Notes: a model not told the origin generated them from the letters alone. A stretch of 64,000 nucleotides of DNA from Alphaproteobacteria bacterium (GCA_050633285.1 JBOEGG010000001.1:456134-520133); one strand, 5' to 3'; positions 1,285 through 59,251 are shown, numbered from the stretch's first letter. Numbers and translations are program-made.

Positions 1285-2049
1285 TTACTTTTCTTGTGAA
1301 ATGTCCACAGTTCTGTACGTGATACAGGAAAGAATATGCTTCCCGTGCCAACCATTTGGCTTGTATATCCCGAATTTTAGATAAGGAGCTTTGTGGTCGT
1401 TATAGCTATTCGCGCCTTCATATGTGTGTGTAGGGCCATCGGCAATAGTGGTTTTTAAAACACCATTATCCTGATGGGTGAGGTTGGCTATAATCTGTAT
1501 AGGGATCCACTGATTTTGTTCATAGGAATAGTTTTGAAAAATTTCCCGAGATTGAATGCTGCTATTTTCTTCGGCGCAATGATATCCACTCGTCTTCGAT
1601 ATGGCGGTCTTATCCCATCTGTTAAACATGCGTAAATTGCCCTTATATGCCTCTAAGGATACCGGAGGGCATCTCCAATTCTCTGATGTGTCAGGGGGGG
1701 AGTGAATTTGAAAAATACTCATCCATCTATCTGCTTTGTTGACGTTATGGCTGATTTTCATGTCGTAAGAAATTTGTGCCACAAAAGGACGTTTTTGAAA
1801 GGGTTTTATAACAATTTCACATCTTTTTTGATTTGATGCCTTGTGAAGGCAGACGGAAAGCTCCGCTGAATGAGGGGCATCTATGACTTGGAAACTCTGT
1901 TGTGGGCATTCAATTTGTATCTGGCTGGCCGGTATACCAAAAAAACGAGCGAGATTCTGGATATCTGCGGCATTGGTAGAAGCGAGAGAGTTGGGAATAT
2001 ATAAAACGCTATTCAAACAAAGCGCAAAAAGAAATATTCTAAAAAACAT
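1285..2049 (-). CDS. Secreted polysaccharide-lyase-fold protein (alginate lyase 2 / PL7-like)
   Basis: Signal peptide MFFRIFLFALCLNSVLYIPNSLA. QIH motif (WMSIFQIHSPPD) and YxKxGxY motif (YLKFGIYKPNGW) match two of the three PL7 signature blocks. Confidence 0.4.
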   Translation of the reverse strand: MFFRIFLFALCLNSVLYIPNSLASTNAADIQNLARFFGIPASQIQIECPQQSFQVIDAPHSAELSVCLHKASNQKRCEIVIKPFQKRPFVAQISYDMKISHNVNKADRWMSIFQIHSPPDTSENWRCPPVSLEAYKGNLRMFNRWDKTAISKTSGYHCAEENSSIQSREIFQNYSYEQNQWIPIQIIANLTHQDNGVLKTTIADGPTHTYEGANSYNDHKAPYLKFGIYKPNGWHGKHILSCITYRTVDISQEK

Positions 2050-2250
2050 GGATGACCCTTACATGAGAAGGAATGATTGAATATAGTGGCAGGCAATAGA
2101 TAAAACATCAATATATTGTGCTTAAATCTTTCGGGAAATATAACAAGGTATTGATATATAATGAAAATATATATTTTGTTGATTTATTGTAAAGATTCGC
2201 ATTATTATTTTTCATAACTTTTTGTGTGTTTAAATTTAGGGGAAAACGAT

Positions 2251-4395: not shown

Positions 4396-4414
4396 GTCAA
4401 AAGAATAAGAGAGA

Positions 4415-4442
4415 GGCCGGGCATTATGTCCGGCTTTTTTTA
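4415..4442 (+). terminator. Rho-independent terminator after the RTX adhesin gene
   Basis: GCCGG-gcattatgt-CCGGC hairpin followed by T9 run. Confidence 0.6.
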
Positions 4443-4514
4443 TTTTAAGGTGACAAAAATTATACGCTAGGCTATATCCCTACACTTTATAAATATAGGA
4501 AAGGGGACGGTATC

Positions 4515-4706
4515 ATGACAATAAAACGTAAAATCACAATAGGTGTTGTCGCGTTTTTTATATATCTGCTCAGTACAATTCCTGTTGGCTTGTTCCTGTA
4601 TTCATTAAAAACAGAATCTGGTTTAAATGTTTTCTCAAAAACAGGATTTCACAGTTATGTCTACTGCTTACAAGAGCAGGTTGAGGCAATCGGAAGTCAA
4701 AAGTAA
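4515..4706 (+). CDS. Small single-TM hypothetical protein (63 aa)
   Basis: AGGGGA RBS 8 nt upstream of the ATG; one hydrophobic helix (IGVVAFFIYLLSTIPVGLFLY); sits in the 413-bp gap between the two adhesin genes. Confidence 0.3.
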   Translation: MTIKRKITIGVVAFFIYLLSTIPVGLFLYSLKTESGLNVFSKTGFHSYVYCLQEQVEAIGSQK

Positions 4707-4807
4707 ACTGTGCTTTTAAAAAGTTTAGTATTTCCTATAGATTTTTTCCTTTTCATACACTAGTACTTCTTGCCGCGTGAATACGTATAAACGGGAAGGT
4801 TTGAAAC

Positions 4808-6412
4808 ATGATAAAGGTAAGTCAAAATATTAGCACGGTATTTGGTTTATTCGCTGCTGTCGCAGTAACAACAACAGCGAATGCAAATGAGAGGCCGGTT
4901 CTCGGCAAAGACAGCGCACGTGTTGATGAAGATCAATCCGTCGAAATTAACGTCCTTTCCAATGATAATGATCCTGATGGCGATGCCTTAAGAATTACAT
5001 CTGTAGAAGGGCTAACCAATGGGGTTGCCACCATTAACGCGCTGGAAAATCGTATCACATATACGCCCAATCCCGATTATAATGGTACGGAGAGCTTTTT
5101 ATATCGTGTGACCGATGATAACGGTGGCAATGCAGTACAACGGGTTAACGTTACAATTGACGCAGTTGAAGATGAGGTTGAGCCAAATTTAAGGCCGACA
5201 CTGGGAAAAGATAATGTCTCTTTGATAGAAGGGGAGACACGTCAGATTAATGTTCTATCCAATGATTCTGATCCGAATGGTGATGCACTTAGCGTAACCC
5301 AAGCATGGTCCGCGACGCATGGTACGACTACGGTGAATGCGGATAATACAATTACATATACGCCTGATGCGGGCTATTTTGGTGCTGACTCTTTTTATTA
5401 TCAGGCGAGCGATAATAGAGGCGGTCTGGCAACACAGGTTGTGAACGTCTCCATTGAGGAAGTCGCGAACCGACGCCCGAAGTTGGGTAAAGATAGTGCA
5501 CTATTAAGTGAAAACACAACGGTAAGGTTGAATGTCCTGTCCAATGATTCTGACCCTGATGGTGATGCGCTTAGCGTAACCCAAGCATGGTCTGCGACGC
5601 ATGGTACGACTACGGTAAATGCGGATAATACGATTACATATACGCCAGATGAAGATTATTTTGGTAATGACGCTTTTTATTATCAGGTAAGTGATGATAA
5701 TGGTGGTTTGGCAACGCAGGTCGTGAGTGTATCAATTGCAGAAGTTGATGATGGGCCGGATCCAAACAATCTTCCTCCCGTTGCTGTCAGGGATGATTTT
5801 ACGGTTGATGAGGATACAGTGACGGAACTGGATGTTTTGTTAAATGATAGTGATCCGAATAATGATTATCTAACTGTTGTCTCATTCACTGCGCCATCAC
5901 ATGGCGACCTTGAAATGGAGATTAAAGAAAATAATACGATCTGGTATCGGCCAAACGCAGAATATAATGGTCGGGATAGCTTTACTTACACGGTCAGTGA
6001 CGGGCAGGGAGCAGAAACAACGCAGACTGTTACTCTACATGTGCAACCGGATGTATCGGAAAACGCAAAGCATATATACTTCGCTATGCAGGCTTGTAAT
6101 ACAGGTGGTTGTTCGGTGAAATCAAATGAAGTGACAAAATATATGGATGGCCCGAAAATAACGCTTGGCTGGGATCAGCCAACGCGCCTTGAGAACGGGC
6201 AATGTATAGATGAAAATACGCAAGTGACCAGTTATGTATTGAATATGGGTGTAGAGCAAGGTGTGCATGGTGCAACTGATTTATGGTCTTTAGAATCTGT
6301 GCATGTGGATTGTGAGCCGACTGGTCGTCGTGATGAGCAGTGCGATGTTGATATCATGAGATGCACAGAAGAAGATTATTATGTCGAAGGATTCATTACG
6401 GATTTTGAATAG
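4808..6412 (+). CDS. Secreted cadherin-like repeat protein (4 tandem modules + Cys-rich C-terminal domain)
   Basis: GGAAGG RBS. Signal peptide MIKVSQNISTVFGLFAAVAVTTTANA. Four ~95-aa modules each with NVLSNDSDP(D/N)GDALSVT and ITYTP(D)xxYxGxDSFYYQxSD motifs. C-terminal 120 aa has 8 Cys. Confidence 0.75.
   Translation: MIKVSQNISTVFGLFAAVAVTTTANANERPVLGKDSARVDEDQSVEINVLSNDNDPDGDALRITSVEGLTNGVATINALENRITYTPNPDYNGTESFLYRVTDDNGGNAVQRVNVTIDAVEDEVEPNLRPTLGKDNVSLIEGETRQINVLSNDSDPNGDALSVTQAWSATHGTTTVNADNTITYTPDAGYFGADSFYYQASDNRGGLATQVVNVSIEEVANRRPKLGKDSALLSENTTVRLNVLSNDSDPDGDALSVTQAWSATHGTTTVNADNTITYTPDEDYFGNDAFYYQVSDDNGGLATQVVSVSIAEVDDGPDPNNLPPVAVRDDFTVDEDTVTELDVLLNDSDPNNDYLTVVSFTAPSHGDLEMEIKENNTIWYRPNAEYNGRDSFTYTVSDGQGAETTQTVTLHVQPDVSENAKHIYFAMQACNTGGCSVKSNEVTKYMDGPKITLGWDQPTRLENGQCIDENTQVTSYVLNMGVEQGVHGATDLWSLESVHVDCEPTGRRDEQCDVDIMRCTEEDYYVEGFITDFE
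5281..5740 (+). repeat. Intragenic direct repeat (~180 bp unit at 5281-5460 and 5561-5740, ~90% identical)
   Basis: DNA compared directly. Both copies encode SVTQAWSATHGTTTVNADNTITYTPD..FYYQ.SD..GGLATQVV.VSI.EV. Confidence 0.8.
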
Positions 6413-6493
6413 TATTCTTGCCTATTTTATATAGTGTTGAGTTAGGATTCTATGTTTGATTCCTGACTCTTGTGCATTTTTTTTAAAATGATT

Positions 6494-6512
6494 TTAGAAT
6501 TAGAATTCTCTA
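6494..6512. promoter_or_regulatory. Imperfect palindrome TTAGAATTAGAATTCTCTA in giant-adhesin upstream region (candidate operator)
   Basis: Core AGAATTCT is a perfect palindrome with extended imperfect arms, about 250 bp upstream of the 6757 start. Confidence 0.2.
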
Positions 6513-6756
6513 AATCAAAAGGGCTACACTCTGTTTCCCGATACACTTGCATTTCCGCATCATAAAAAGGTTACATTTTCCTTAATATTTTGTTGTTTTT
6601 TCGAAGAGAAAGGGCGTATATTCCATCCTTATTACTAGAATGCGACACAGAATATATCTGGTGCGCTGCACAAGTTAGGGACAACTTGGCATCGTGCGGG
6701 GGCATTACTCGTAACAGATAATTAAGAATTTGAGCGTAAAGAGCAAGGATAAGACG

Positions 6757-9700
6757 ATGGGTAAATATGTAGCAACACGCAATAAAGTACAATGTACACG
6801 AGCGGCAAACATAACAAAAGGTCTTTCTAAGGCATTAATGTCGACAACAGCCTTTATGGCAGCGGCTCTTTTAATGCCGATGAACGCGGATGCACAAGAT
6901 GCAACGCCGACACATTCTTGGGATTATGATACGGTTCTGGACGGTAATGTGAGTAAGGATCTAACAATTCCGAACGTAACCGATATTACAGTTACAAACG
7001 GTAATGGTTATGTTGAAGGTAATGCAGATATTTACAATGGTCATACAGTGAACGTTACTGGTGATAGCGGCAGCACATTTGCATACCGTGATAATCGCGC
7101 AGATATTCAATCTACATTGGATGGTGATCTGAATTCTAATATGCAGATTGTTATTATCGATAAGGATGGTTTGTTTTTCACTGAGAATTCCAGTGTTGAT
7201 GTGCAAAGCTTAATCGCCACTTCAGGAAAGATTAGTGTCTCTGATATTATGGATAACGGAGATTTAACGATCAAAAATATCGCGAATGGCGGTGAAATTG
7301 TTCTGGATGGAACGATTACGGTTGCTGAAGCTGGTCTTGCGGCATTTGTATCCCCATTTGTAACCAACAGTGGCGTTATTAATGCAAAGCTTGGTAATGT
7401 TGTCATGGCGTCTGGTAAGAAGGTGACGCTTGACATGTATGGTGACGGCCTTGTTGAGGTTACTGTTAAGGGTGAACTGAATGACGCTCTTTTAAGTAAT
7501 GAAGGTTCAATTAATGCAGAAGGCGGTACAGTACAGATTACTGCGAAGGCCGCAAAAGATACAATTGATAACGTTATCAATAACACGGGTATTATCACGG
7601 CATCTTCTGCAACAGTTTCAGGCGGTAAAATTATTCTGTCCGGTGGTAAAAACGGAACAGTCAATAACAGCGGCTCAATTGAAACATCTGCGGGTGGTTC
7701 GGTTGATATATCAGGTGAGCGTTTCGTACAAGAGGGTGCACCTCCTGTACCTTCGTCAAAGCCGGCATTAAGCCCATCTATTAATACGGGTGGTGGTAAT
7801 GTGAATATCGCGACAAGCGGAAATGTTGAAATCTACGCAGGCGAAATTAATGCCGAAGGCGGAAATATTGACATCGATAATGGCGGTGTTTTCACTTCTG
7901 TCGCAAATACTTTAAAAACAAATGGTACAGGCACAATTGACCTGAATCAGAATCAAGATGATACACCTGTCCCAACTGCACAAATTCTTGCATTGATTGA
8001 GCCGGCTGCTCAGGGAATCCAAGGCGCAATTGATGCGATTGATAACACAGGTACAGGCGAAAATACAATTAATGTAGGCGCGGGCACATTCAATGAATCT
8101 GTTAGTGTGGATCATGCAAATATCGTTCTAAATGGCGCAAATGCAGGTACAGCAGGCTATTCTAATGCGCGTGGTGATGAAACAATCATTAATCCGAATT
8201 CTCCGGGATTCCATGTAACTGCGGATAATGTGACAGTTGATGGGTTTACCGTTACTGGTGGTGATCCTGGCATTCATGTAGATCACGCACAAAATGCATC
8301 AATTTTGAACAATGTAGTAACCGGAAGTACAACACACGGTATCCATTTCAATCGTGCTCATAATAGTACTGCACAGGGTAACAGCATAGATTCTGTTACT
8401 GAATCAGGTATCTTTGTAGAAAGAAGTAATAATACTGATATTGGTGGTCTTGCATCGGGTGAAGGTAATGAAATTGATGGTGCATGGACAGGTATTCGCA
8501 CCAGTGATAGTAACGACATATCCATTATCGGAAACGATATAAGTAATATCACAGGAACAGACCGTTTCGCTGACGGTATCCATGTGTTTGGTGGTGCTAG
8601 TGTAGATGTCTCTAATAACCGTATTGATACGACGAACGATGAAGGTGTTTATGCAAGCTTTACCCGTGGAAACCTAACAATTACGGACAACGTTATAACA
8701 AATGTTGGTCTTGCAACACCTGACATTGGTAATGGGGTTGAGCTGATCTACACGAAAGGTAATGCGAATGTGTCAGGTAATAAGATTACGGGCACAGAAC
8801 ATGCAGGTGTTTTAATTAAAGAGACGAATACTTCTGGTGGCTCTTTTGTTGTTGATGATAATAGAATTAAGAACACTGGTGCGTCCGGTATTGATATCGA
8901 TAAGAAAGCTGCGAGCGTTTCAGGTAATACAATATCCAATGCTGGCAAACACGGTATTGATGTAGATGCATCATCTAATGTTGTCATCGCGGGTAATGAT
9001 CTGTCTGACATTACCGAAATCGGTATTTTTCTAGACGATAGTGATAATGCTGTTATCGGTGGTACGACTGCTGCTGATGCAAATAAAATTAATCGTGCAT
9101 GGACAGGTATCCGTGTAAATGACGCTAACGAAGCAGATATCATAGGCAACAATATTAAAAACATCACAGGAACAGACCGTTTCGCTGATGGTATCCATGT
9201 GAATGGCGGTGCTAATGTTGAGATTTCTCATAACAAGATTAAGAATACGAATGACGAAGGTGTATATGTAAGTTTTGCACGCGGTCACATTGTTATTGAT
9301 GACAACACAATCACGAATGCTGGTCTTGCGACTGCCGATATCGGTAATGGGGTTGAGCTAATTGCGATGAAAGGCTCAGCAGAAATTACAAACAATGATA
9401 TTAATGGCGCTGAGTTTGCCGGTATCTTGCAAAAAGGTTGGAGAGGAAGTGGCTCTCTTCTTGTTGCAGGGAATGATGTAGAGAACGCACAATTTGGTGT
9501 TCGTATTGATGAAGGTATCGATGGTCGTCGTGTTGATATTCTGGACAATGATTTAAAAGCGGATGATGTTGGCGTTCTTGTAACTGGTGGCATCACAAAT
9601 GGTGCACATTTGCAGATAGGCCAACTGTTCGACGGCAACACTATCAAATCTAAGGGAGATGGTGTCCGCATTGAAGGTGGCGTAGACGATTCTGACGTAT

Positions 9701-12700
9701 TTATCGTGGCAAACAAAATTACCGGCCGTGCTGACGGTATCCATGTGGATGGCGATGTTACAGATTCCATATTCGGCATTGGTCTGAATAGTATCAAGGG
9801 TATCAATGATGACGGTATCGACTTTGAGGGTAATGTAGAAGATAGCCTGGTCGCGATTGTTTTGAATAAAAGCATAGAAGGCGGTCATGATGGTATTGAG
9901 TTTGAAAACACAATCCGTGGTGAGGATACAGTTGTTGCGATTGCCTTGAATAAAGAAATCAAAGGTGGTTCTCGCGGTATTCGTTTCGGTGATAGTGCCG
10001 ATGACGCAGCCGTAGAAGATGGCGCGACAGTCGCCATAGCATATAACGGTAAGATCAAAGGAAAGAATAACGACGCAATTCAATTTGATGCGGAAGTTAA
10101 CGACTCAACAGTTACAATAACCAATAATAAGAACATTATCGGTGGCGATGATGGTATTGAGTTTGATGAGAAGGTAACAAATTCAACAATCACAATCGCG
10201 TCAAATGATATTGAGGCAGATGATGATGGTATCGATTTCGACTCCGGTGTATCTGGTGGCTCTGTTGAAATTACCGATAATACAATTGACGCTGGGGACG
10301 CAGGTATCGAGTTTGATGCAGGTAGCCCGGCAATCTTTGGCGCGTCTGTTTTGATCTCCGAAAATGATATTTACTCTGAAGATGGTCATGGTATTGCTGT
10401 AAATGGTGACATCACAGATTCATTGGTACGTATCATTGACAATATTTCAATTGATGGCGCAGAAGACGGTATTCATGTCGCGGGTGAAATCGAAGATGAA
10501 TCAAATGTGATTATTGCACGTAATGATGAAATCTATGCAGAGTATGGTCATGCAATTGCCCTGAATGATGGTGTTGATGATTCAACTGTACGCATTATTG
10601 ATAACGGCACGATTGACGGTGGCGATAATGGTATTAACATTGAGGGAGGCCTTGATGAAGCGACCGTTGTTATTGCCCGTAATGCAGATATTTTTGCCGA
10701 AGATGGTCATGGTATCGCAGTACATAGTGACGTGTCTGATACAGACCTGCGTATCATTGATAACACATCGATTGATGGTGGCACAGACGGTGTTCATGTC
10801 CATGGCGCACTGAGAAGTGGATCAACAATCACGATTGCACGTAATAGTAATGTTACAGGTCTTGATGATGATGGTATTGAGGTCGTAAATACAGGATTTG
10901 GTAAAAATGCAGATGTTCGCATCGCACGTAACCATGTCCATCACACAGGTGATGATGGTATCATAGTGCGTAATGTCAAGGGCGTAGATGTTGTTCATAA
11001 CACTGTTCATGACACAGACGGTAATGGTATTAAGGTTTCTCGTAGTGCATACGCAGACATCATTAATAATGATGTAACGCGCGCTGGTGATGACGGTATC
11101 GATGTAGAATATAGCTATAACGTTGATATTCTCCTCAACACAGTGAAGCGTTCCGGCGATGACGGTATAGATGTTGAAAACAGCACAAGCGCCGATATCC
11201 GCGGTAATGATGTTTCTAAATCACGTGGTGATGGTATTGAGGTAACAAATAGTGCCTATACAGATATCATTAACAACCGCGTTCGTTTCTCTGGTGATGA
11301 CGGTATCGATGTAGATCGTAGTTTCGCAGTAGACATCAAACGTAATTCTGTTTTCGTAACAGGTGGTAACGGTATTGAAGTTACCAATAGCCGTTATGCA
11401 GATATTATCCGTAACAACGTTGCCTTTGCGGGTGATGACGGCATCGATGTTGGTTATTCATCTTTCGCAGATGTAAACGGTAATAATGTTTATCGTGCAC
11501 GTGGCGATGGTATTGAGATCACAGGCGGCTACGGCGTAGATGTTAAAGGTAACGACATCTATAGTTCCGGCGATGATGGTATTGATATTGAGCACAGTAA
11601 CGGTGCAGAGATTGCCTATAACTATGTGACAGGATCACGCGTTAACGGTATCGAAGTATCAGATAGTAACGGCGTTGATATTACAGATAACGGTATATTC
11701 TTCTCAGGTAATAATGGGATTGATGTTCGTTATGGTGGCGATATAAATGTTCGTCGTAACTTTATCCGCTTCTCACGCAATGATGGTATTCATGCAGAAG
11801 GCATTTATGGATATGGCGCATCGTTTACACGTTCTAACGGCGGTAATGGCGGAATTGATATTGTAAACAACAATATTCGTTTCTCTGGTGATGATGGCAT
11901 TGATGTTGAAGGCAGCAATGATGTAAATATTCGTCGTAATCTTATCCGCGATTCACGTGATGACGGTATTGACGTATCATACAGCTATGATGTCGATATT
12001 ATAAATAATCGTATTATCCGTTCTGGTGATAATGGCATCGAAGTGCGCGGTGGTGGTGACATCAATATCCGTCGTAACTTTATCCGTCGTTCCGGCAGTG
12101 ATGGTATCCATGCCGAAAATGTATATGGCGGTGGAATACCCACGATCTCTATGAGTAGAGACGGGACCGAAGGTGGCTTATATATCGTGAATAACGATGT
12201 TCGTTTCTCTGGTGATGATGGTATAGAAGTGCAAAATAGCAGTTCTGCAAAAATCAAACGCAACACAATTAGCGATTCTGAAGATGATGGTATCTCATCA
12301 CGTTATAATGGCAGTGTTGTGATTGCGCGCAACGAAGTGGATGAATCAGGCGATGATGGTATCTATGTTGTTGGCGGTGGATTTAAAGGGCCGCAAATCT
12401 TTGCATTGTCTGATGAGCTGCAAGAGCAACCAAAAGTTCGTTTTTACGGTTCTTCTGCGGTCATCCGTGGGAACACAGTAACAAACTCTGGTGGTGACGG
12501 TGTTCACACAAACAATATTGATAATCTGAGAATTGTTAACAATAATGTGAGTGATAGCTTTGAGCATGGTGTTTACGTATCCGGTGCATATAACGGATAT
12601 GTGAAATTTCAGGGCAATACATTAACTGATAACGGACATTTGAGCGATTCTGCCGCGGCACGTTTTGAAAGTGGCGATATCGATATGAGCAATCTGGATA

Positions 12701-13467
12701 ACCCAAATACATTTATCAATACATCAGGCTTGCCTGCTGTTGCGATGCAGTTTGATGATATTTCAGGCGGTGTATTCCCATCAGACGCAATCCTTTTGAA
12801 TGACGGGCCGTCTTTCATGGGTGGTAATGGTCTTCGTATCGTTGGTGAAACTCTAGGCTCAACCATCTTTGATGGTTACACACCGGAAGATAGCTTCTAT
12901 GTTCGCTTCGAAGATGGCTCTATACTTGACCCATTAACAGGCGCGCCAATTGTGATTGATGCAATGGATGTATCATTTGATGGTCTTGTGCCAAACACGT
13001 TTGCAGGTGGTGTATTACCGGCTCCTGTCTTTGATTTCATCGAAGAGCGTCTTTTTGATGCAGATGATGAAACGCAAGATGGACGCGGTCAGATATTTAT
13101 CGGAACACGTGCTCAAAACACGCAAGGACCGGCAAATTTCCAAGATTTCCTTCCTGAGAGTGAAGCGGCAAGCAGAACAAGTAATGGTGCGAGCCTTGTG
13201 ATTACAGGCCTGCCATCTGTTAATGGCTTTGGCGCAGATGCTCTGAATAATATTGCACCAAATGCAGGTGGAGAAGGAAATGAGAACCCTGAGGATCTTG
13301 CTAATATTGATCCGGCAGCCGGTGGTGAAGAGCAGTCTCCATCACAAGTAACATGTATGGGTGACGCTGTAGGCGCGCTTGAAAGCGGCTCTGTATCATA
13401 TAGTTTTGGTGGTTCATTTGAGGATAGCATCGCAGGAACCTCTTCCTGTGCAAGCGCAGATTTATAA
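6757..13467 (+). CDS. Giant secreted adhesin-like protein: TPS/FHA-like N-terminal domain + extensive right-handed parallel beta-helix (PbH1/NosD-type) repeats
   Basis: ATG 6757 with AAGGA RBS (the track uses TTG 6730). 46-aa extended signal peptide (…TTAFMAAALLMPMNADA|QD). Residues ~60-330 resemble the hemagglutination-activity/TPS domain (GDLNSNMQIVIIDKDGLFFTENSSVDVQSLIATSG; GGEIVLDGTITVAEAGLAAFV…GNVVMASGKKVTLDMYGDGLVEV). About 60 copies of a 22-23-aa unit N.V..SGDDGIDV..S..VDI. follow, and the protein ends in a Gly/Ser/acid-rich tail. Confidence 0.7.
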   Translation: MGKYVATRNKVQCTRAANITKGLSKALMSTTAFMAAALLMPMNADAQDATPTHSWDYDTVLDGNVSKDLTIPNVTDITVTNGNGYVEGNADIYNGHTVNVTGDSGSTFAYRDNRADIQSTLDGDLNSNMQIVIIDKDGLFFTENSSVDVQSLIATSGKISVSDIMDNGDLTIKNIANGGEIVLDGTITVAEAGLAAFVSPFVTNSGVINAKLGNVVMASGKKVTLDMYGDGLVEVTVKGELNDALLSNEGSINAEGGTVQITAKAAKDTIDNVINNTGIITASSATVSGGKIILSGGKNGTVNNSGSIETSAGGSVDISGERFVQEGAPPVPSSKPALSPSINTGGGNVNIATSGNVEIYAGEINAEGGNIDIDNGGVFTSVANTLKTNGTGTIDLNQNQDDTPVPTAQILALIEPAAQGIQGAIDAIDNTGTGENTINVGAGTFNESVSVDHANIVLNGANAGTAGYSNARGDETIINPNSPGFHVTADNVTVDGFTVTGGDPGIHVDHAQNASILNNVVTGSTTHGIHFNRAHNSTAQGNSIDSVTESGIFVERSNNTDIGGLASGEGNEIDGAWTGIRTSDSNDISIIGNDISNITGTDRFADGIHVFGGASVDVSNNRIDTTNDEGVYASFTRGNLTITDNVITNVGLATPDIGNGVELIYTKGNANVSGNKITGTEHAGVLIKETNTSGGSFVVDDNRIKNTGASGIDIDKKAASVSGNTISNAGKHGIDVDASSNVVIAGNDLSDITEIGIFLDDSDNAVIGGTTAADANKINRAWTGIRVNDANEADIIGNNIKNITGTDRFADGIHVNGGANVEISHNKIKNTNDEGVYVSFARGHIVIDDNTITNAGLATADIGNGVELIAMKGSAEITNNDINGAEFAGILQKGWRGSGSLLVAGNDVENAQFGVRIDEGIDGRRVDILDNDLKADDVGVLVTGGITNGAHLQIGQLFDGNTIKSKGDGVRIEGGVDDSDVFIVANKITGRADGIHVDGDVTDSIFGIGLNSIKGINDDGIDFEGNVEDSLVAIVLNKSIEGGHDGIEFENTIRGEDTVVAIALNKEIKGGSRGIRFGDSADDAAVEDGATVAIAYNGKIKGKNNDAIQFDAEVNDSTVTITNNKNIIGGDDGIEFDEKVTNSTITIASNDIEADDDGIDFDSGVSGGSVEITDNTIDAGDAGIEFDAGSPAIFGASVLISENDIYSEDGHGIAVNGDITDSLVRIIDNISIDGAEDGIHVAGEIEDESNVIIARNDEIYAEYGHAIALNDGVDDSTVRIIDNGTIDGGDNGINIEGGLDEATVVIARNADIFAEDGHGIAVHSDVSDTDLRIIDNTSIDGGTDGVHVHGALRSGSTITIARNSNVTGLDDDGIEVVNTGFGKNADVRIARNHVHHTGDDGIIVRNVKGVDVVHNTVHDTDGNGIKVSRSAYADIINNDVTRAGDDGIDVEYSYNVDILLNTVKRSGDDGIDVENSTSADIRGNDVSKSRGDGIEVTNSAYTDIINNRVRFSGDDGIDVDRSFAVDIKRNSVFVTGGNGIEVTNSRYADIIRNNVAFAGDDGIDVGYSSFADVNGNNVYRARGDGIEITGGYGVDVKGNDIYSSGDDGIDIEHSNGAEIAYNYVTGSRVNGIEVSDSNGVDITDNGIFFSGNNGIDVRYGGDINVRRNFIRFSRNDGIHAEGIYGYGASFTRSNGGNGGIDIVNNNIRFSGDDGIDVEGSNDVNIRRNLIRDSRDDGIDVSYSYDVDIINNRIIRSGDNGIEVRGGGDINIRRNFIRRSGSDGIHAENVYGGGIPTISMSRDGTEGGLYIVNNDVRFSGDDGIEVQNSSSAKIKRNTISDSEDDGISSRYNGSVVIARNEVDESGDDGIYVVGGGFKGPQIFALSDELQEQPKVRFYGSSAVIRGNTVTNSGGDGVHTNNIDNLRIVNNNVSDSFEHGVYVSGAYNGYVKFQGNTLTDNGHLSDSAAARFESGDIDMSNLDNPNTFINTSGLPAVAMQFDDISGGVFPSDAILLNDGPSFMGGNGLRIVGETLGSTIFDGYTPEDSFYVRFEDGSILDPLTGAPIVIDAMDVSFDGLVPNTFAGGVLPAPVFDFIEERLFDADDETQDGRGQIFIGTRAQNTQGPANFQDFLPESEAASRTSNGASLVITGLPSVNGFGADALNNIAPNAGGEGNENPEDLANIDPAAGGEEQSPSQVTCMGDAVGALESGSVSYSFGGSFEDSIAGTSSCASADL
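8440..9430 (+). repeat. Intragenic segmental duplication (~330 bp units at ~8461-8790 and ~9061-9390)
   Basis: DNA is near-identical; both encode …AWTGIR..D.N…I.GN.I.NITGTDRFADGIHV.GGA.V…NDEGVY.SF.RG…GLAT.DIGNGVELI…. Confidence 0.75.
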
Positions 13468-53459: not shown

Positions 53460-53488
53460 ATTAAGAGTATTGCTTTATAGAAAAAGAA

Positions 53489-53517
53489 AAGAGCCACGTG
53501 TATAGGCTCTTTTTTTG
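53489..53517. terminator. Bidirectional terminator between gcrA and the prepilin operon
   Basis: AGAGCC-acgtgtat-AGGCTCT followed by T7. Confidence 0.6.
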
Positions 53518-53536: not shown

Positions 53537-54850
53537 TTATGGCGGTATCTGACAATTTGTTCCGTCTGCATCACAACACCTAATGCGCCCTAAATTTGAA
53601 AACCCGTTCATGAATTGCCCTGCAGGACAGCTTGTTCCTTGCACAGGTGTCCAGTCAACATCACGGCATAAAAGAGTATTTTCGTGAATTGCATAGGCAA
53701 CTTGTGTTGGGTTTGCACATCTCATGGCTGAAATGTCACCTGCCAATGCATCAGGATTGAGGCAGTCAACCGTCCCATCACTGCCATTTATACAATATTG
53801 TGTTCCTAATGTTGCGCCTTCTACACGTAAATTACCGGCAATATGAAGTTGATGGGTAGGAGCATCTGTGCCAACGCCTACATTCTCCAAGTTTGTGTTG
53901 TATAGCCATGTATCTGTACCTGCGGCTAAAGACTGTCTCCAAATTGGGACAAGGCCAGTGGATGCGTAGAACAGCATATCATCATAAAAATTTGCATTAT
54001 CTGCCATAGAGCGAAGTCCTTTAATATAAATGGCATCATTCGCATCGCAATTTTCAATTTCAAGCTGTATCCCTGCACCATTGACCCCGGGTGCCGGTAG
54101 GCTCGGAGGGGCGGGAGGGGGCAATACGCTCACTAAACAATTATCAACTTGCTCGCCTTGTTGGGTGTATCCGCCTCGTCCATTATCGCCATGGGATAAA
54201 AGGATATAATGAGCAGAGTCAGCTGGTGTCGTAAGGTTAATACGATTTTCATCCAGCACGCTAACAGCTCCGGTCCTGGGGTTGAACGGGTGATCTGTGT
54301 TGTGGATGTTGCTATCTGTCATATGTTCGGTAACGGCATAGGTAAAGAGTTGTCCATATCCATCTTTTTTATGTACTTCTCTATATGGTGTCGAAACAAC
54401 AGTGTCATACAGTGTTCTGAAAGGAATAACACCTTGTGTGACAACATCAATGACCCCATTCCCATCTCCGTCGCGGCTGAAACTGGGTGAGTTCTCATCA
54501 AAGCATGAGATGTTGAGTGGAACATTCGTGCAATGATCCGGGTCAAATCCACCTGCCGCAAAGGCACGGCAACGTTCTAAACCGTAATTAGCATTATTTG
54601 GCGAAAGCGTAGGATCGGCAGGACATGGATAACGTCCTTCAAGTACCCGAAACTCTCTTAAAGCAGCCTGTGTCATTTCGGCATTTTCAACAGTGGTGTC
54701 ATGTTTCACTGTAATACCATAAAGCTTTACAAATTGCGCAGCTGCGACCATAAAAACCCCGGAAATAACAAGGACTACAGCTATTTCCAACAGTGTAAAT
54801 CCATTATCTGGTGAAGATATACGATCTATTTTATTTCTAAGTTTTAACAT
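53537..54850 (-). CDS. Giant type IV prepilin-like protein (437 aa), third of three paralogues
   Basis: Leader MLKLRNKIDRISSPDNG|FTLLEIAVVLVISGVFMVAAAQF (Gly-1, Phe+1, Glu+5). Shared module motifs EGRYPCPADP, LLSHGDNGRGGYT, ENCDANDAIY. Cys-rich C-terminus ending …CQIPP. Confidence 0.75.
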   Translation of the reverse strand: MLKLRNKIDRISSPDNGFTLLEIAVVLVISGVFMVAAAQFVKLYGITVKHDTTVENAEMTQAALREFRVLEGRYPCPADPTLSPNNANYGLERCRAFAAGGFDPDHCTNVPLNISCFDENSPSFSRDGDGNGVIDVVTQGVIPFRTLYDTVVSTPYREVHKKDGYGQLFTYAVTEHMTDSNIHNTDHPFNPRTGAVSVLDENRINLTTPADSAHYILLSHGDNGRGGYTQQGEQVDNCLVSVLPPPAPPSLPAPGVNGAGIQLEIENCDANDAIYIKGLRSMADNANFYDDMLFYASTGLVPIWRQSLAAGTDTWLYNTNLENVGVGTDAPTHQLHIAGNLRVEGATLGTQYCINGSDGTVDCLNPDALAGDISAMRCANPTQVAYAIHENTLLCRDVDWTPVQGTSCPAGQFMNGFSNLGRIRCCDADGTNCQIPP

Positions 54851-54864
54851 AGTAATATCTCCTG

Positions 54865-57357
54865 CTATGGAATTTGCGGGCTACAAGAGCAATTTGTCCA
54901 TACATCAAAGTCACCGCTATCTCCGTAGTTCCAGCAATATTTTGTGGCTGAACTACCGCATGTACATTTGTGACCAACGCGCTTATTCGCGCCTCCTAGG
55001 GCGGAGCTTTCTGTTTGTGGTGCTCCGCTTGGGGCTTGCCACGCACATGGGTAACATTGTACTGATGTCTCTTCCCAATCAGCCTCCAATTCCCATGCTC
55101 CAGTTGCGCAATCCCATTCTTTTTCATAGAACACGCCCGGCCCGGCTAAGTTTTGCCCGGGGAACACATCATCACAATCTTTGTGTTCGGGTTCTGGTGG
55201 TGTGCTAGCATCACAAGAGCAAGATGGGATAGGAGCATATGGTACAGGCGGAGCGTAATATCCCGGATCGGGCAGGCCGCCACTTTGTGTTGCTGGGCAG
55301 ACCCAATCTTGCGTACTTAATGTTTGTACGCCAACCTCTGTTCCGCCCGGCCATGACCAATTATTCGTTTCGCCAAACGGACAAGATGATCTATTTACAA
55401 TTTGTGCGTTTGCGTCACATTGGCAGGCAGAGGCATCTACACTGTTTGGAATATTCCCTTGTTGCGGAACACCACCTACACAAGTAACGGGGTACACAAA
55501 ATGAACAGTCCCAGATAGGCCAGATGTTCCTGAAGTACCATTAACCTGATCATAATAGTCATTACATGTCATAGTATCGGGTGCCGTCGTTGGAACACAA
55601 CCACAGTTGGTTTCATCAACATACACATCACGCCAGTTATGACGGGTTTGCGGGCAATTATGTCTTTGGATGACAAAGGCATCACCACTTTGGCCGCTTG
55701 GGCAATTTCTTCTGTAAACACGGTAATCTTCACGACACCAGCAATCATGGTAATGATTATTATTGGATGCATCAGAGCCGGAATAGCTTGTTTCTGCACG
55801 CCAGTGGCCGCCATTGTTGGTCAGGTTTGATGTAAAGTTATTGTAATCATAGCCTTTTTCATGAACGCGATAACTGCTCCAGTTCCCGGCGTTGCATCGA
55901 TAGACATCACGAACGGTAGAACATGCTTGCACTGTGCGTGTTTCACTATTCATTGTATCGACAAACCCTTGGAACTCAGTGAGTGTTGTCATACCAACAG
56001 TATTGGATACGTAATAGCCATTATTATGATGCGTAATCGTGCGGCATTCACCAGAGAATGCGGTCTCTAATGTTCCACTTGGCGCATTATCCGTCAGTGT
56101 GTGATCGCTGCCGCCACATGTTCTTGCTAAATCTGTTGTTGCACACGGGGAGGGCGGCTCACCTGCGCAATCAATACGACCGCTTGAATCAATGGATTTA
56201 ATAGATTGACCATTCGGGCACGAGATAAATATTTCGTCTGTGCATCGGGCAGTTTTATTCTGAACGCCAGCTAAGAAATTATCTTGCCCGAGTCCACTAT
56301 CATAGCAACTGATGCCATGATTTGCTGTTGCGACTTGCTGTCTACCATTAGCCTCTACAGGCCCTAAGCTACCGGCAATAAGGGTCGGTTCAAAACAATC
56401 TGTAGCCGCAGTACCGCTACCGTTATCTTCGCAAAGATTATCAACGAAAAAATTATCTTCCGCTTTTACAAAACCGGTATCGGTTGAGGTCGGGGTAACT
56501 TTTAAAACAGATAGGGTTTCTTCTGTCGCAAGGTCGGTTGTTACACCGGCGCCAAGCGCAACACTATTTGTATTTTTCAGGTGAATATCTTCTGTTGGAT
56601 TATTCGCTGCATCGGCAATAAATTGCCATTCAGATGGCTGTACAGCACTATAGAAGAAAGTGCGGTCATCGTAATTATCTGCGATTTCTGCCGAAGTGTA
56701 GACGGTGTCTGTGTCACAATTTTCTTGCTCTTGTGTCGAGCCGTTTGTGCAGGCAAGGCCGACTACACCTGCTCTGCTCACGCCTCCTATTTTATTTGGC
56801 CCATGAGAGATAACAATAAAGTGAGCTGTGTCATCAACACCCAGAATAGAATCATTATTTAGATCGACAACTCCAATGCCACCTTGCGACATATTGAACG
56901 TGGTGGTATCCGTGAGCTCTCGTGTGACAGCATAATCAAAGCGCGATAGATAACGGTCAAAGACATCATTTTCTTGCAAATTTAGAGTTTTAAATGGGAT
57001 GTTACCGCTTAATACTTCTTTAGGTGCAATATTGCTGGCGTAGCGGCATATACCATTTGCACATGTGCCAAGTACAGGGTTGGTTGCGCAATCTTCGTGT
57101 CCGTATTCTACATCACCAGGGGCAGCAGAACTGGGAGATGGGCAGGGGTAACGACCATAAATAGAACGATATCCACCGATAGCATCTAAAACAAGGTCGA
57201 TCCGCTCTTCTGTATCTTCCCAATCTTTTTCAACTCTATATTGATGGTAGAGGGATGCAGCTGGCGCAATAACTAGCCCTATTAAAACCAGTGAAATTGC
57301 TATTTCAATAAGGGTAAATCCTGAAATATTCTTTTGTGTTTTTAAGGCACGGCGCAT
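54865..57357 (-). CDS. Giant type IV prepilin-like protein (830 aa), second of three paralogues
   Basis: Leader MRRALKTQKNISG|FTLIEIAISLVLIGLVIAPAASLY. YGRYPCPSPS, VISHGPNKIGG, ENCDTDTVY. About 45 Cys in the C-terminal 550 aa. Ends …CSPQIP. Confidence 0.75.
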   Translation of the reverse strand: MRRALKTQKNISGFTLIEIAISLVLIGLVIAPAASLYHQYRVEKDWEDTEERIDLVLDAIGGYRSIYGRYPCPSPSSAAPGDVEYGHEDCATNPVLGTCANGICRYASNIAPKEVLSGNIPFKTLNLQENDVFDRYLSRFDYAVTRELTDTTTFNMSQGGIGVVDLNNDSILGVDDTAHFIVISHGPNKIGGVSRAGVVGLACTNGSTQEQENCDTDTVYTSAEIADNYDDRTFFYSAVQPSEWQFIADAANNPTEDIHLKNTNSVALGAGVTTDLATEETLSVLKVTPTSTDTGFVKAEDNFFVDNLCEDNGSGTAATDCFEPTLIAGSLGPVEANGRQQVATANHGISCYDSGLGQDNFLAGVQNKTARCTDEIFISCPNGQSIKSIDSSGRIDCAGEPPSPCATTDLARTCGGSDHTLTDNAPSGTLETAFSGECRTITHHNNGYYVSNTVGMTTLTEFQGFVDTMNSETRTVQACSTVRDVYRCNAGNWSSYRVHEKGYDYNNFTSNLTNNGGHWRAETSYSGSDASNNNHYHDCWCREDYRVYRRNCPSGQSGDAFVIQRHNCPQTRHNWRDVYVDETNCGCVPTTAPDTMTCNDYYDQVNGTSGTSGLSGTVHFVYPVTCVGGVPQQGNIPNSVDASACQCDANAQIVNRSSCPFGETNNWSWPGGTEVGVQTLSTQDWVCPATQSGGLPDPGYYAPPVPYAPIPSCSCDASTPPEPEHKDCDDVFPGQNLAGPGVFYEKEWDCATGAWELEADWEETSVQCYPCAWQAPSGAPQTESSALGGANKRVGHKCTCGSSATKYCWNYGDSGDFDVWTNCSCSPQIP

Positions 57358-58634
57358 ATTAAATCTCCGTTTGCTTGAATTCCGGTGACGCGTTGGCCAT
57401 CGCCACAGTCAAATGTATGAATTTCGGTGGTGTCCACACGTAATTGAACATTGCCACTTATATTTTCGGGATGGCTACATTCAACACCACTGTTACGTAA
57501 GCGCATAACTGCGCGGTCTGTACCGTTTATCTGTGCACATTCCATAGAGGGCTCTGTTCCCGTTATTATTTCGGGGTCAAAGCAATCATTGGCATCAATG
57601 TCACATATCGTATCTGAAAGAACCCGCCCGTTCGTACCGGATGTGTTTTCCGTGCGGATATCTCCGTTGACGTGAATATCGAAATCCGGCTCTGTCATGT
57701 CTGGCCCTATCCCGATACGGTTTGCAAGTGTCATTACAAAGTCCTTGGATACGTATGCCGGGTTATCAGGGTGTTGAAACCATGTGTTTTCCGGAAGGGA
57801 GAGTTGCCCTAATGTAATATCATCAAAGAAAGTCGCGCCTGTCGCTTCTGAATAGGCGGAAGCTGCGGTGTTTCCTTGATCTTCATGAAGGAAAAATAAG
57901 TTATCAAAATCGCAATTCTCGTGGTCATATCCTGTTGATATACCGCCACAAGGGGCTGTCTGTGTACCGTTCTTTGTATAACCACCCAAAGCGCTTCGGC
58001 CTGTGGTGAAGATAAAGAAGTCGAAATTTGTACTACTGAGGTCGGGGACGCCGTCTTCTACTCCCAATGCTACTAAGGCGGGGTCATCGGGGGATAATAC
58101 CCTTACTTTTCCGGGGTCAGATGTGAATAGTGCGCTATCTGTTTGTTGGTGGGTTACCGCATAGATGAGCTTGTTACCCCAAAAATCTAAGGCTTCCTCT
58201 TGTGTGATATTAAGCTCAGCAAATGGAATTCCGCCAATAATAACGGCGCTGCTGTTATTCGAAGTTTTACATATCCCGCCTGCTGCTCGCCATCCGGGGT
58301 CGGAACAGAGGAGGATGCTGGCAAAATTGGCGCAATCGCCCGTATCGCCGAAATCTATATCGCCTGGTTTCTCTGTAAGATCTGTTGGGCAAGGGTAGGC
58401 GGCATTACCGCTCGCATAATATTGATTGATTGCTTCTCTTAAATTAACAAGAGAACCTTCATTCGACCGGTATGTCGTGGTTGCAATATCAAGTTTATAT
58501 GACTGAATAAGAGGAACAGTGATGAGGCCGAGTAATATTAGGCCTATAGCGACCTCAATCAAAGACAGACCCTTTTCCTCTTTTCGGAGAAGGGAGAATT
58601 TCGACTTTATATATAACGCAGTGTTTTTAAACAT
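57342..58634 (-). CDS. Giant type IV prepilin-like protein (430 aa), first of three paralogues
   Basis: Leader MFKNTALYIKSKFSLLRKEEKG|LSLIEVAIGLILLGLITVPL. NAAYPCPTDL, TTGRSALGGYT, ENCDFDNLF. Ends …ICAVP. Stop overlaps the downstream start by 16 nt. Confidence 0.75.
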   Translation of the reverse strand: MFKNTALYIKSKFSLLRKEEKGLSLIEVAIGLILLGLITVPLIQSYKLDIATTTYRSNEGSLVNLREAINQYYASGNAAYPCPTDLTEKPGDIDFGDTGDCANFASILLCSDPGWRAAGGICKTSNNSSAVIIGGIPFAELNITQEEALDFWGNKLIYAVTHQQTDSALFTSDPGKVRVLSPDDPALVALGVEDGVPDLSSTNFDFFIFTTGRSALGGYTKNGTQTAPCGGISTGYDHENCDFDNLFFLHEDQGNTAASAYSEATGATFFDDITLGQLSLPENTWFQHPDNPAYVSKDFVMTLANRIGIGPDMTEPDFDIHVNGDIRTENTSGTNGRVLSDTICDIDANDCFDPEIITGTEPSMECAQINGTDRAVMRLRNSGVECSHPENISGNVQLRVDTTEIHTFDCGDGQRVTGIQANGDLICAVP

Positions 58635-58738
58635 AATAATCCAAAATACAAAATATACCAGTTTGATATGTTAGCAGGGTTTTAGTTAAAATTTTATGAA
58701 AATTAAATACGGAGAACTTGGTAGCAATAGAAAGAGAG

Positions 58739-59251
58739 TTAGCCAATAACCTGCAAATCAACGGCTTCACGTCCTTTATCGACGAATTTTAACGTAACAC
58801 GAACGCGCTGGCCTGCTTCTAATTCGTCTAGTTCAAGCTTGTCTAAAAGAGTTTTGTGAATGAAAACGTCTTTCATGCCATCATCAGGGATAATAAACCC
58901 AAACCCTTTTTCCGGCTTATACCATTTTACAAGGCCACCCATTGTTGCCATACCGGTTTCTTCGTTTATTTCCGGAGCAGTGCTTAGCGCACCCTTGTCC
59001 AAAACTTCAAGGACTTCTTGAACCTGACGACCTTTATCACCATTACTGACTGTACATAATAATATTGCACCTTCGCCAATAGAGTGCAGCCCTGATTGCT
59101 GCAAGGTTGTAACATGTAGGAATGCATCATAACTTTCATCTTCGGGAACAACAAAGCCAAAGCCTTTAGTGCCATTGAACCATTTAAGGTGCATTTTAAC
59201 GGGAACGAGCTCATTTTGAGGAGAGGAATTTTGAACGGAATTTTGCAACAT
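58739..59251 (-). CDS. Tandem cold-shock-domain protein (2 CSDs)
   Basis: Two KWFN/KWYK.EKGFGFI…DVF.H motifs in one 170-aa protein; 105 bp upstream of the prepilin operon on the same strand. Confidence 0.85.
   Translation of the reverse strand: MLQNSVQNSSPQNELVPVKMHLKWFNGTKGFGFVVPEDESYDAFLHVTTLQQSGLHSIGEGAILLCTVSNGDKGRQVQEVLEVLDKGALSTAPEINEETGMATMGGLVKWYKPEKGFGFIIPDDGMKDVFIHKTLLDKLELDELEAGQRVRVTLKFVDKGREAVDLQVIG

Follow-up and report, generated by a model that had tools for sequence, protein, structure and literature searches.

A conserved triad of large modular pilins in Micavibrio-like bacteria as a candidate tip complex of a type IVa pilus

Introduction

Modular pilins comprise more than 1,200 proteins with 264 architectures, and minor pilins of the CofB type form trimers at the tip (PMC8179133). 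The Tip complexes of Myxococcus are heterotrimeric, disulfide-rich assemblies of three Tad minor pilins, which determine prey range and are encoded apart from the machinery (PMC12075869). The "capping loop" consensus of the mosaic adhesive trimeric (MAT) fibres of Bdellovibrio, which edges an intertwined, obligately trimeric beta-helix, also occurs in S74 phage tail fibres and MyRF (PMC10769870). This work describes three adjacent genes, here named A, B and C, encoding large prepilin-like proteins that resemble each of these systems in part. They lie in a 64,000-nucleotide stretch of an assembly labelled Alphaproteobacteria bacterium (GCA_050633285.1, JBOEGG010000001.1:456134-520133); this whole stretch is the window, and all coordinates are counted from its first letter unless they follow the name of another locus. 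The favoured reading, to which we give a probability of roughly 0.55, is that A, B and C are minor pilins forming a 1:1:1 complex at the tip of a retractile type IVa pilus (T4aP), with an extension peculiar to B serving as a prey-binding head.

Epibiotic predators such as Micavibrio, which recognise and hold their prey, are explored as living antibiotics. In M. aeruginosavorus ARL-13, one cluster contains a highly expressed prepilin of 247 amino acids (aa), GMV_1530, with a secretin, two PilT-like ATPases, a 274-aa leader peptidase and PilC- and PilB-like genes (PMC3189940). A separate Tad/Flp locus contains a tadE-like gene and two adjacent genes co-expressed with flp (GMV_527-529), as well as its own short peptidase, while three consecutive prepilin genes, GMV_742-744, encoding proteins of 391, 692 and 377 aa, are found among housekeeping genes (PMC3189940).

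Results

Three adjacent genes encode paralogous prepilin-like proteins

The genes and their N-terminal signals are located as follows.

57342-58634, minus strand: gene A, 430-aa prepilin-like protein with 12 Cys, A lineage
54865-57357, minus strand: gene B, 830-aa prepilin-like protein with 40 Cys, B lineage
53537-54850, minus strand: gene C, 437-aa prepilin-like protein with 14 Cys (12 conserved), C lineage
58509-58634, minus strand: class III signal and hydrophobic alpha1-N of A, residues 1-42, MFKNTALYIKSKFSLLRKEEKG / LSLIEVAIGLILLGLITVPL
57259-57357, minus strand: class III signal and alpha1-N of B, residues 1-33, MRRALKTQKNISG / FTLIEIAISLVLIGLVIAPA
54737-54850, minus strand: class III signal and alpha1-N of C, residues 1-38, MLKLRNKIDRISSPDNG / FTLLEIAVVLVISGVFMVAAAQF

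As the initial annotation of this DNA had it, three consecutive minus-strand genes encode proteins of 430, 830 and 437 aa, the first two overlapping by 16 nt; a 14-nt gap separates B from C. The prepilin-peptidase substrate signals it had recognised are likewise present at all three N-termini, where a basic leader precedes a glycine, the residues F/L-S/T-L-I/L-E and a hydrophobic stretch (GLSLIE with Gly22 in A, GFTLIE with Gly13 in B, and GFTLLE with Gly17 in C). The Pfam model N_methyl (PF07963) scores B at 23.9 and C at 25.7 bits, above its gathering score of 21.2, and A at 15.7, below it; similarly, NCBIfam TIGR02532 gives C 25.8 and B 17.3 bits against a cut-off of 16.3, with A below at 10.5. 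The signal is kept throughout a 96-member family alignment. The three proteins are paralogous, with pairwise BLASTP E-values from 3e-19 to 1e-31 and colinearity across approximately 400 aa. Judged by these signals, a prepilin peptidase would cleave and methylate them, and they would assemble into a filament.

The proteins have a pilin-like fold and additional modules

In searches against Pfam, NCBIfam and PHROGs, only the N-terminal methylation motif of A, B and C was recognised. The family is otherwise absent from these databases, is annotated generically, and no description of it was found in the literature. The shared domain, proposed from the outset to be uncharacterised, matches neither GspK nor any characterised minor-pilin family in the three databases, and such a domain was ruled out on this basis.

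The fold is nevertheless recognisable. When the family profile was compared with PDB sequences, its first 76 positions matched the alpha1 helices of type IVa pilins and PulG (E = 3e-11 to 6e-6). The AlphaFold2 model of C, built from a 96-sequence alignment, has a mean predicted local distance difference test score (pLDDT) of 86.4, and consists of a 52-residue N-terminal helix (residues 20-71), a mixed beta head, a low-confidence proline-rich loop, short strands and a cysteine-rich C-terminal domain. The long helix and beta head of the model agree with the pilin fold, in which alpha1 packs on a beta-sheet head. No Foldseek match of this model to the PDB fell below E = 0.001. The model of B has a mean pLDDT of 73.6, with most of its extension at 80-90 and a linker below 50; a structure search with it returned the same pilin matches as C and none to the extension, and the B sequence had no match in the PDB beyond alpha1.

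In all three proteins a pilin module (approximately residues 1-290) is followed by a fibre motif and a cysteine-rich knob, with a further 430-aa extension in B only. They are consequently modular pilins by the definition of Raynaud et al. (2021), having an N-terminal pilin module and added modules. The shared module can thereby be refined into a pilin domain, a capping-loop segment of the tail-fibre/MAT type, and the cysteine-rich knob.

A, B and C are co-retained lineages

Homolog clusters numbered 103 for C and 30 for B, almost all unnamed or generically named, with some family members called "type II secretion system protein" by NCBI. When C without its helix was used as the query of an exhaustive phmmer search, 2,198 cluster representatives reached E <= 1e-3 and 114 reached E <= 1e-30; the top matches were nearly all 370-520 aa long and aligned from beyond residue 60-80, which is the architecture of C.

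A scan restricted to one genome per species yielded 52 loci (given L numbers below), nearly all in metagenome-assembled genomes labelled Micavibrio sp. or Alphaproteobacteria bacterium; one distant match was the cultured M. aeruginosavorus. On the evidence of these homologous loci, the window comes from an uncultured Micavibrio-like alphaproteobacterium. A few assemblies had discordant labels (Alcanivorax, Bdellovibrionales and Zetaproteobacteria; L008, L030, L047 and protein P0011) yet Micavibrio-type content, and the Alcanivorax-labelled L008 has the same synteny with GcrA. The discordant labels are best explained by mis-binning, or by NCBI taxonomy filing Micavibrio under Bdellovibrionales. 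This taxonomy places Micavibrio in Bdellovibrionota although it carries the alphaproteobacterial regulator GcrA.

Among close relatives the gene order is strictly kept, with an acyl-CoA synthetase gene, the series of a cold-shock-domain (CSD) gene followed by A, B and C, and then GcrA-Era; A orthologs in syntenic loci are 35-48% identical. Hidden Markov models (HMMs) of each lineage were made from only the first 400 residues of the A, B and C orthologs at 11 training loci. With these, 32 of 50 loci classified as exactly A-B-C in that order, 21 of them outside the training set, and the exceptions were mostly truncated at a contig end or very divergent. The set of one small, one large and one small gene recurs across all loci. 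Hence A, B and C are better regarded as distinct lineages retained together than as a loose paralog family. That three anciently separated lineages should be represented by one member each, in overlapping or abutting frames, argues for non-redundant, stoichiometric roles.

Some genomes depart from a single triad. Two complete triads occur in tandem in L015 (1323-11260); in L014 (4818-9998) there are two B genes, each of 843 aa and with the same HMM scores, a pair that may reflect duplication or an assembly artefact; and L042 (5518-9980) has two B-type genes. On the complete Micavibrio chromosome containing L025, a 586-aa protein with only a weak match to a BSD2 cysteine-rich domain is encoded directly downstream of the triad (11249-13009, minus strand). 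In addition, M. aeruginosavorus HCB189 (L052, 8659-14249), L049 and L050 contain another trio of the family, shorter and more divergent than the first. Its proteins have mature lengths of approximately 416, 332 and 304 aa and few cysteines, and are followed by a 725-aa protein without a Pfam match. L025 and L049 indicate that the full triad and the short array can coexist on a single Micavibrio chromosome.

Shared motifs, cysteines and lineage-specific segments

Two segments are confined to single lineages.

54865-56160, minus strand: B-specific C-terminal extension, residues ~400-830, with ~30 Cys and CxC and CPxG patterns
54446-54475, minus strand: R-D-x-D-x-N-G-x-x-D loop of C, residues 126-135, a candidate Ca2+ site specific to the C lineage

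The motifs attributed to the shared module by the initial annotation fared variously. YPCP occurs in all three proteins, although it lies approximately 57 residues past the cleavage site, where the long helix ends, rather than about 25 aa past the transmembrane segment. ENCD(x)D is also common to A, B and C, in the form ENCDx(x)D. SHGxNxxGG, by contrast, is found in B and C but not in A, which reads TTGRSALGG at this point. The CPxGQ...C element thought to close each protein does so in C and in A (as CGDGQ); in B it occupies residues 380-397, and the 430-aa extension comes after it. The count of about 45 cysteines given for the 830-aa protein should be 40.

The cysteine counts of approximately 12, 40 and 12 in A, B and C are kept across loci, and 12 cysteines are conserved in at least 84% of C-family members, which fits C being an oxidised, extracytoplasmic protein. 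Self-comparison of the B extension with hhalign gave only weak signals (best E ~5e-3, probability ~7%), and no repeat architecture is claimed. In the C loop, R126, D127, D129, G132 and D135 are invariant or nearly so across the family, and the loop is absent from A and B. Its 1-3-5-9 spacing is that of EF-hand-like calcium sites, and it may bind Ca2+; it resembles the calcium site of PilY1 that controls retraction.

A capping-loop motif is shared with Bdellovibrio fibres

The fibre motif has the following positions in the three proteins.

53828-53899, minus strand: MAT-fibre/tail-fibre capping-loop motif in C, residues 318-341, NTNLENVGVGTDAPTHQLHIAGNL, from the family profile match
57669-57722, minus strand: the same motif in A, residues 305-322, NRIGIGPDMTEPDFDIHV, from regular expression and alignment position
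56497-56577, minus strand: degenerate counterpart in B, residues ~261-287, KNTNSVALGAGVTTDLATEETLSVLKV, aligned with the A and C motifs

In the sequence search against the PDB, positions 298-338 of the C-family profile matched fibre proteins of Bdellovibrio bacteriovorus.

Bd2133: E = 8.7e-11, three motif copies
Bd3182: E = 7.6e-5
Bd2439: E = 1.1e-3
Bd1334: E = 3e-3

The family consensus NTNlGNVGvGTdtPtekLHvaGd aligns with the three Bd2133 copies, SGNLGLGTAAPTSALHVE, TGLVGINTAAPLQKLHVENG and AGNVGIGATAPTAKLEVAG. Weak matches to PHROG tail-fibre families (C residues 310-351), and weak Foldseek matches of the C model to the same Bdellovibrio fibres, fall on this segment too, which the monomer models predict with lower or poor confidence. 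Orthologs of C have a clear motif, as do those of A, where it reads TRVGVGTTNPAESLEV and similar; in most B orthologs it is degenerate, with a clear form retained in some (L033, L035 and L042). The B counterpart in the window is without the proline, and its AlphaFold2 confidence is below 50.

Membership of the MAT fibre family was considered and rejected, because A, B and C have neither the MAT N-terminal domain, nor the stalk, nor the S74 chaperone (no Pfam match to Peptidase_S74), and only a single copy of the motif; one module alone is shared. Two other proteins containing this segment were found among the homologs. One (P0247, 2,307 aa) matches it in 24 separate stretches, and is therefore a giant fibre built of the capping-loop repeat; the other (P0187, 1,209 aa), in which residues 838-1058 form a C-type module, could be a fusion or an artefact of gene calling.

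Relatives link the triad to pilus machinery

In agreement with the initial annotation, no pilus machinery was found within the 64 kb by Pfam annotation of the open reading frames (ORFs), nor by tblastn with E. coli GspD-O or with PilD, PilT, secretin and Cpa/Tad probes from Micavibrio-like loci. A motif scan for other prepilin-, Flp- or TadE-type ORFs in the window was also empty, leaving A, B and C as its sole prepilin-type ORFs.

In four relatives, however, the triad adjoins a T4aP-type cluster (L032, L035, L038 and L040). The L035 genes all lie on one strand, and encode a TPR protein, PilD (A24_N_bact and Peptidase_A24), two ATPases, a secretin, two small proteins, an AraC protein and a 270-aa prepilin, followed by the triad. 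The same cluster converges on the triad in L038 and L040, and L032 begins with the end of the 270-aa prepilin gene. This prepilin, the probable major pilin, is present as two tandem copies beside the triad in L038 (12596-14455) and L040 (12443-14229). The L035 ATPases score 480 and 416 bits against the PilT/PilU model TIGR01420 (cut-off 319), the secretin is closest to MshL, and no GspC, GspL or GspM was found in the cluster. As the ATPases pass the PilT/PilU cut-off and the secretin is MshL-like, the cluster is identified as a retractile T4aP rather than a type II secretion system (T2SS).

A Tad operon is the neighbour in eight further loci, which show two arrangements. In seven of them, genes for a PF13629 "pilus formation" protein and for a TPR protein come after the triad, and this series converges on TadC-TadB-CpaF-CpaE-CpaD-CpaC-CpaB; in L023 the triad is 1.3 kb downstream of tadC on the same strand. 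The intervening pair, on the strand of the triad, has a 199-aa PF13629 protein in L033 (11406-12830), and recurs in L031, L034, L037, L041, L042 and L051. As a rough estimate, the chance of lying within 10 kb of two ~12-kb loci in a ~2.4-Mb genome is a few percent. Because the triad adjoins type IV filament loci in two independent ways, a role in a filament is much likelier than chance.

Putative counterparts in M. aeruginosavorus

The linked cluster has the gene order and sizes of GMV_1530-1538 in M. aeruginosavorus, whose prepilin peptidase and T4aP machinery are encoded away from its putative triad, GMV_742-744. The latter mirrors the sizes of A, B and C, and its counterpart status derives from annotation and this size pattern alone. 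A third search for homologs, in which divergent B-type proteins supplied the profile, added neither new proteins nor a named sequence from M. aeruginosavorus, and so gave no sequence-level orthology to GMV_742-744. Synteny provided no link either, as the L025 triad is flanked by hemE-hemH-rho and mnmE and not by pyrD and pgsA. The short array of L052 corresponds to GMV_901-904 of ARL-13, its divergent trio being GMV_902-904, which together with GMV_901 and GMV_905 is mainly expressed in the prey-seeking attack phase (20-62 versus 3-18). GMV0902 and GMV0903 are listed among the highly expressed pilus genes (PMC3189940). No ordinary small minor pilins were seen in either the linked cluster or the M. 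aeruginosavorus gene table, and the triad would therefore fill the minor-pilin role.

Genomic context in the window

Two features border the triad.

53480-53516, no strand assigned: hairpin AGAGCC-N9-GGCTCT with flanking A-run and T6, between convergent gcrA and C, from direct reading of the sequence
58739-59251, minus strand: tandem cold-shock-domain gene, 104 nt upstream of A on the same strand

The hairpin fits the bidirectional terminator that was proposed to be common to the operon and gcrA; it was not listed by the terminator scanner because that program limits loops to 8 nt. The tandem-CSD gene is upstream on the same strand as reported, with a gap of 104 nt instead of 105, and no terminator-like site was found between it and A. 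As its synteny with A is kept in 18 close loci and lost in divergent ones, co-transcription is possible and a functional link is doubtful; the latter was set aside, the synteny being confined to the close clade.

Pfam annotation of the window also identified the housekeeping genes era, rnc, lepB, relA/spoT, yidC, rnpA, glmS, glmU, dapD/dapE, leuA and pheT, as well as a methyl-accepting chemotaxis protein. RTX/cadherin-like and beta-helix giant proteins are encoded at its 5' end, in a cluster of probable secreted adhesins and enzymes (1285-13467) that resembles the "hemolysin-related" arsenal described for M. aeruginosavorus.

1285-2049, minus strand: polysaccharide-lyase-like protein
2224-4395: 723-aa Big_9/cadherin-like protein with RTX repeats
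4808-6412: 534-aa protein with four Big_9/cadherin-like domains
6730-13467: 2,245-aa protein with 12 right-handed beta-helix stretches

Discussion

The proposal of the initial annotation, that these are modular pilin or pseudopilin tip adhesins assembled by machinery encoded elsewhere, is largely supported by this work. It can be extended to a mechanism. The hydrophobic N-terminal helix would insert each protein in the inner membrane, where a PilD-type peptidase would cut after the conserved glycine of the signal. The periplasmic parts would fold with many disulfides among their 12, 40 and 12-14 conserved cysteines, and A, B and C would come together 1:1:1 in a complex for priming and capping the pilus. 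This may be held together by the alpha1 helices and the segment homologous to the capping-loop/triple beta-helix element of trimeric MAT adhesins. At the apex, the 430-aa cysteine-rich extension of B would be the head that binds a surface, such as that of prey, and PilT-driven retraction would draw the cell onto its target. A T4aP is favoured as the partner for three reasons. Firstly, the N_methyl signal is of the T4a/T2SS type, with no TadE match. Secondly, alpha1 has its full length. Thirdly, the Tad locus has minor pilins of its own, whereas the T4aP cluster has none besides the triad.

Several observations weigh against this arrangement. The machinery evidence comes from the genomes of relatives rather than from that of the source organism, whose predatory lifestyle is likewise attributed through its relatives, and 18 loci, including the window, have only housekeeping genes around the triad. 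Eight of the 52 loci place it beside a Tad operon. Heterotrimerisation, location at the tip, prey binding and processing are steps that we infer, and the fibre motif of B is degenerate in the window. All three proteins keep Glu5, unlike the apical GspK-type pseudopilin. Finally, the putative counterpart GMV_742-744 shows weak expression in both phases, although minor pilins of low abundance could well do the same. A more specific form of the proposal, in which the three pilin-anchored chains co-fold through the tail-fibre/MAT triple beta-helix element into a heterotrimeric T4aP tip fibre, with a 40-cysteine head of new fold setting prey recognition, is tentative and on balance doubtful.

It is unlikely that the triad is instead the tip complex of a Tad/Flp pilus, in the manner of the Myxococcus KilL/M/N Tips. 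The convergence of seven loci on the Tad operon through the PF13629 and TPR pair, and the proximity of L023 to tadC, do point this way. So do the Myxococcus Tips themselves, as disulfide-rich heterotrimers of a predator with one large pilin and separate clusters, and in M. aeruginosavorus flp ranks with the most strongly expressed genes of the attack phase (PMC3189940). However, the GFTLxE N_methyl signal matches type IVa pilins and pseudopilins, no match to the TadE domain (PF07811) was found in A, B or C at E <= 1, the 52-residue alpha1 is as in T4a/T2SS pilins, and the M. aeruginosavorus Tad locus is already provided with GMV_527-529 and a short leader peptidase.

Equally improbable is that A, B and C are alternative adhesins, each forming a homotrimer at the pilus tip, such that a cell has three interchangeable tips for different targets. 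MAT fibres and CofB are homotrimers, the C-terminal regions differ among A, B and C, and extra copies occur in some genomes (the two triads of L015, and the paired B genes of L014 and L042). Yet one of each in fixed order at 32 loci, in overlapping or abutting frames, suggests stoichiometric co-use, and the degenerate B motif is ill-suited to self-trimerisation of B.

The generic NCBI naming of some members, weak N-terminal matches to TIGR01710 (GspG), and the absence of GspC, G, H and K from M. aeruginosavorus noted in the 2011 genome paper (PMC3189940) might suggest T2SS pseudopilins that replace the missing GspG, H and K in hydrolase secretion, with no surface pilus. This is very improbable. 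The GspG score, the best of any T2SS pseudopilin in NCBIfam, is 18-24 bits (23.9 at most) against a cut-off of 88.85 and involves only N-terminal residues, and no match at the level of GspH, I, J or K was found. Two PilT/PilU retraction ATPases and an MshL-like secretin are encoded in the linked cluster, and GspC, L and M are not. Moreover, a short periplasmic pseudopilus could not easily accommodate polypeptides of 430-830 aa that include a fibre motif and a 40-cysteine head. Least credible of all is that the pilin-like N-terminus merely anchors large periplasmic or envelope proteins, for despite the lack of machinery nearby in the window and most loci, and the low expression of the putative M. 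aeruginosavorus counterpart, Gly-1 and Glu5 are conserved, a full-length alpha1 bears a pilin-like head, and there is the twofold adjacency to filament loci.

If A, B and C do form a T4aP tip complex, they would supply the missing minor-pilin set of the Micavibrio pilus, and would extend the idea of predatory pili with separately encoded tip complexes, so far shown only for the Tad pili of Myxococcus. Should the more specific, co-folded tip fibre also hold, this would be the first tail-fibre trimerisation module grafted onto type IV pilins, and the unrelated predators Micavibrio and Bdellovibrio would be using one adhesin building block on different scaffolds. With a pilin anchor, a trimer-fibre motif in common with the prey-recognition fibres of Bdellovibrio, and a large disulfide-rich head without structural relatives, the triad is in any case a concrete, conserved candidate for prey contact.

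Comparison with known systems

Four described systems invite comparison. The co-encoded minor-pilin sets GspI-GspJ-GspK of the T2SS and FimU-PilVWX(-PilY1) of the T4aP form heteromeric priming caps in which GspK is enlarged. The triad is similar in being such a set, but its NCBIfam scores are far below the cut-offs, all its members keep Glu5 and are much larger, and no PilY1-like gene was seen next to it. The Bdellovibrio MAT and S74-type phage tail fibres share with it the capping-loop motif (...GNVGIGT..P...L.V.G...), variable distal domains and, for MAT, a predatory host (PMC10769870). MAT fibres, however, are Sec-signal proteins of ~1,000 aa with a conserved ~130-aa beta-rich N-terminal domain, long stalks and several copies of the motif (PMC10769870), whereas the proteins of the triad have a pilin N-terminus, a single copy and no S74 chaperone.

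The M. xanthus KilL/KilM/KilN Tips are closer in organisation, as they have one large pilin with a distal domain of unknown fold and many predicted disulfides, belong to a predatory bacterium as a proposed interchangeable tip for prey recognition, and are encoded in clusters separate from the machinery (PMC12075869). These Tips are TadE/F/G homologs of Myxococcota, whereas the triad has the T4a/T2SS-type N_methyl signal with no TadE match and belongs to Alphaproteobacteria-like Micavibrio. PilB and PilC of S. sanguinis, CofB of enterotoxigenic Escherichia coli and TcpB of V. cholerae similarly combine a class III signal and pilin module with bulky C-terminal modules; these proteins also exceed 400 aa and are presumed to be adhesive and at the tip, where CofB is trimeric (PMC8179133). 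The triad differs from them in that its added modules have no InterPro or Pfam match, three paralogs occur in fixed 1:1:1 sets in place of one protein, a tail-fibre/MAT capping-loop motif is included, and the 40-cysteine head of B has no structural match. The triad would work like the modular pilins and the Myxococcus Tips yet lies outside their families, and what is new is the combination of a T4a-type signal with novel extra modules, a tail-fibre motif and a 40-cysteine head.

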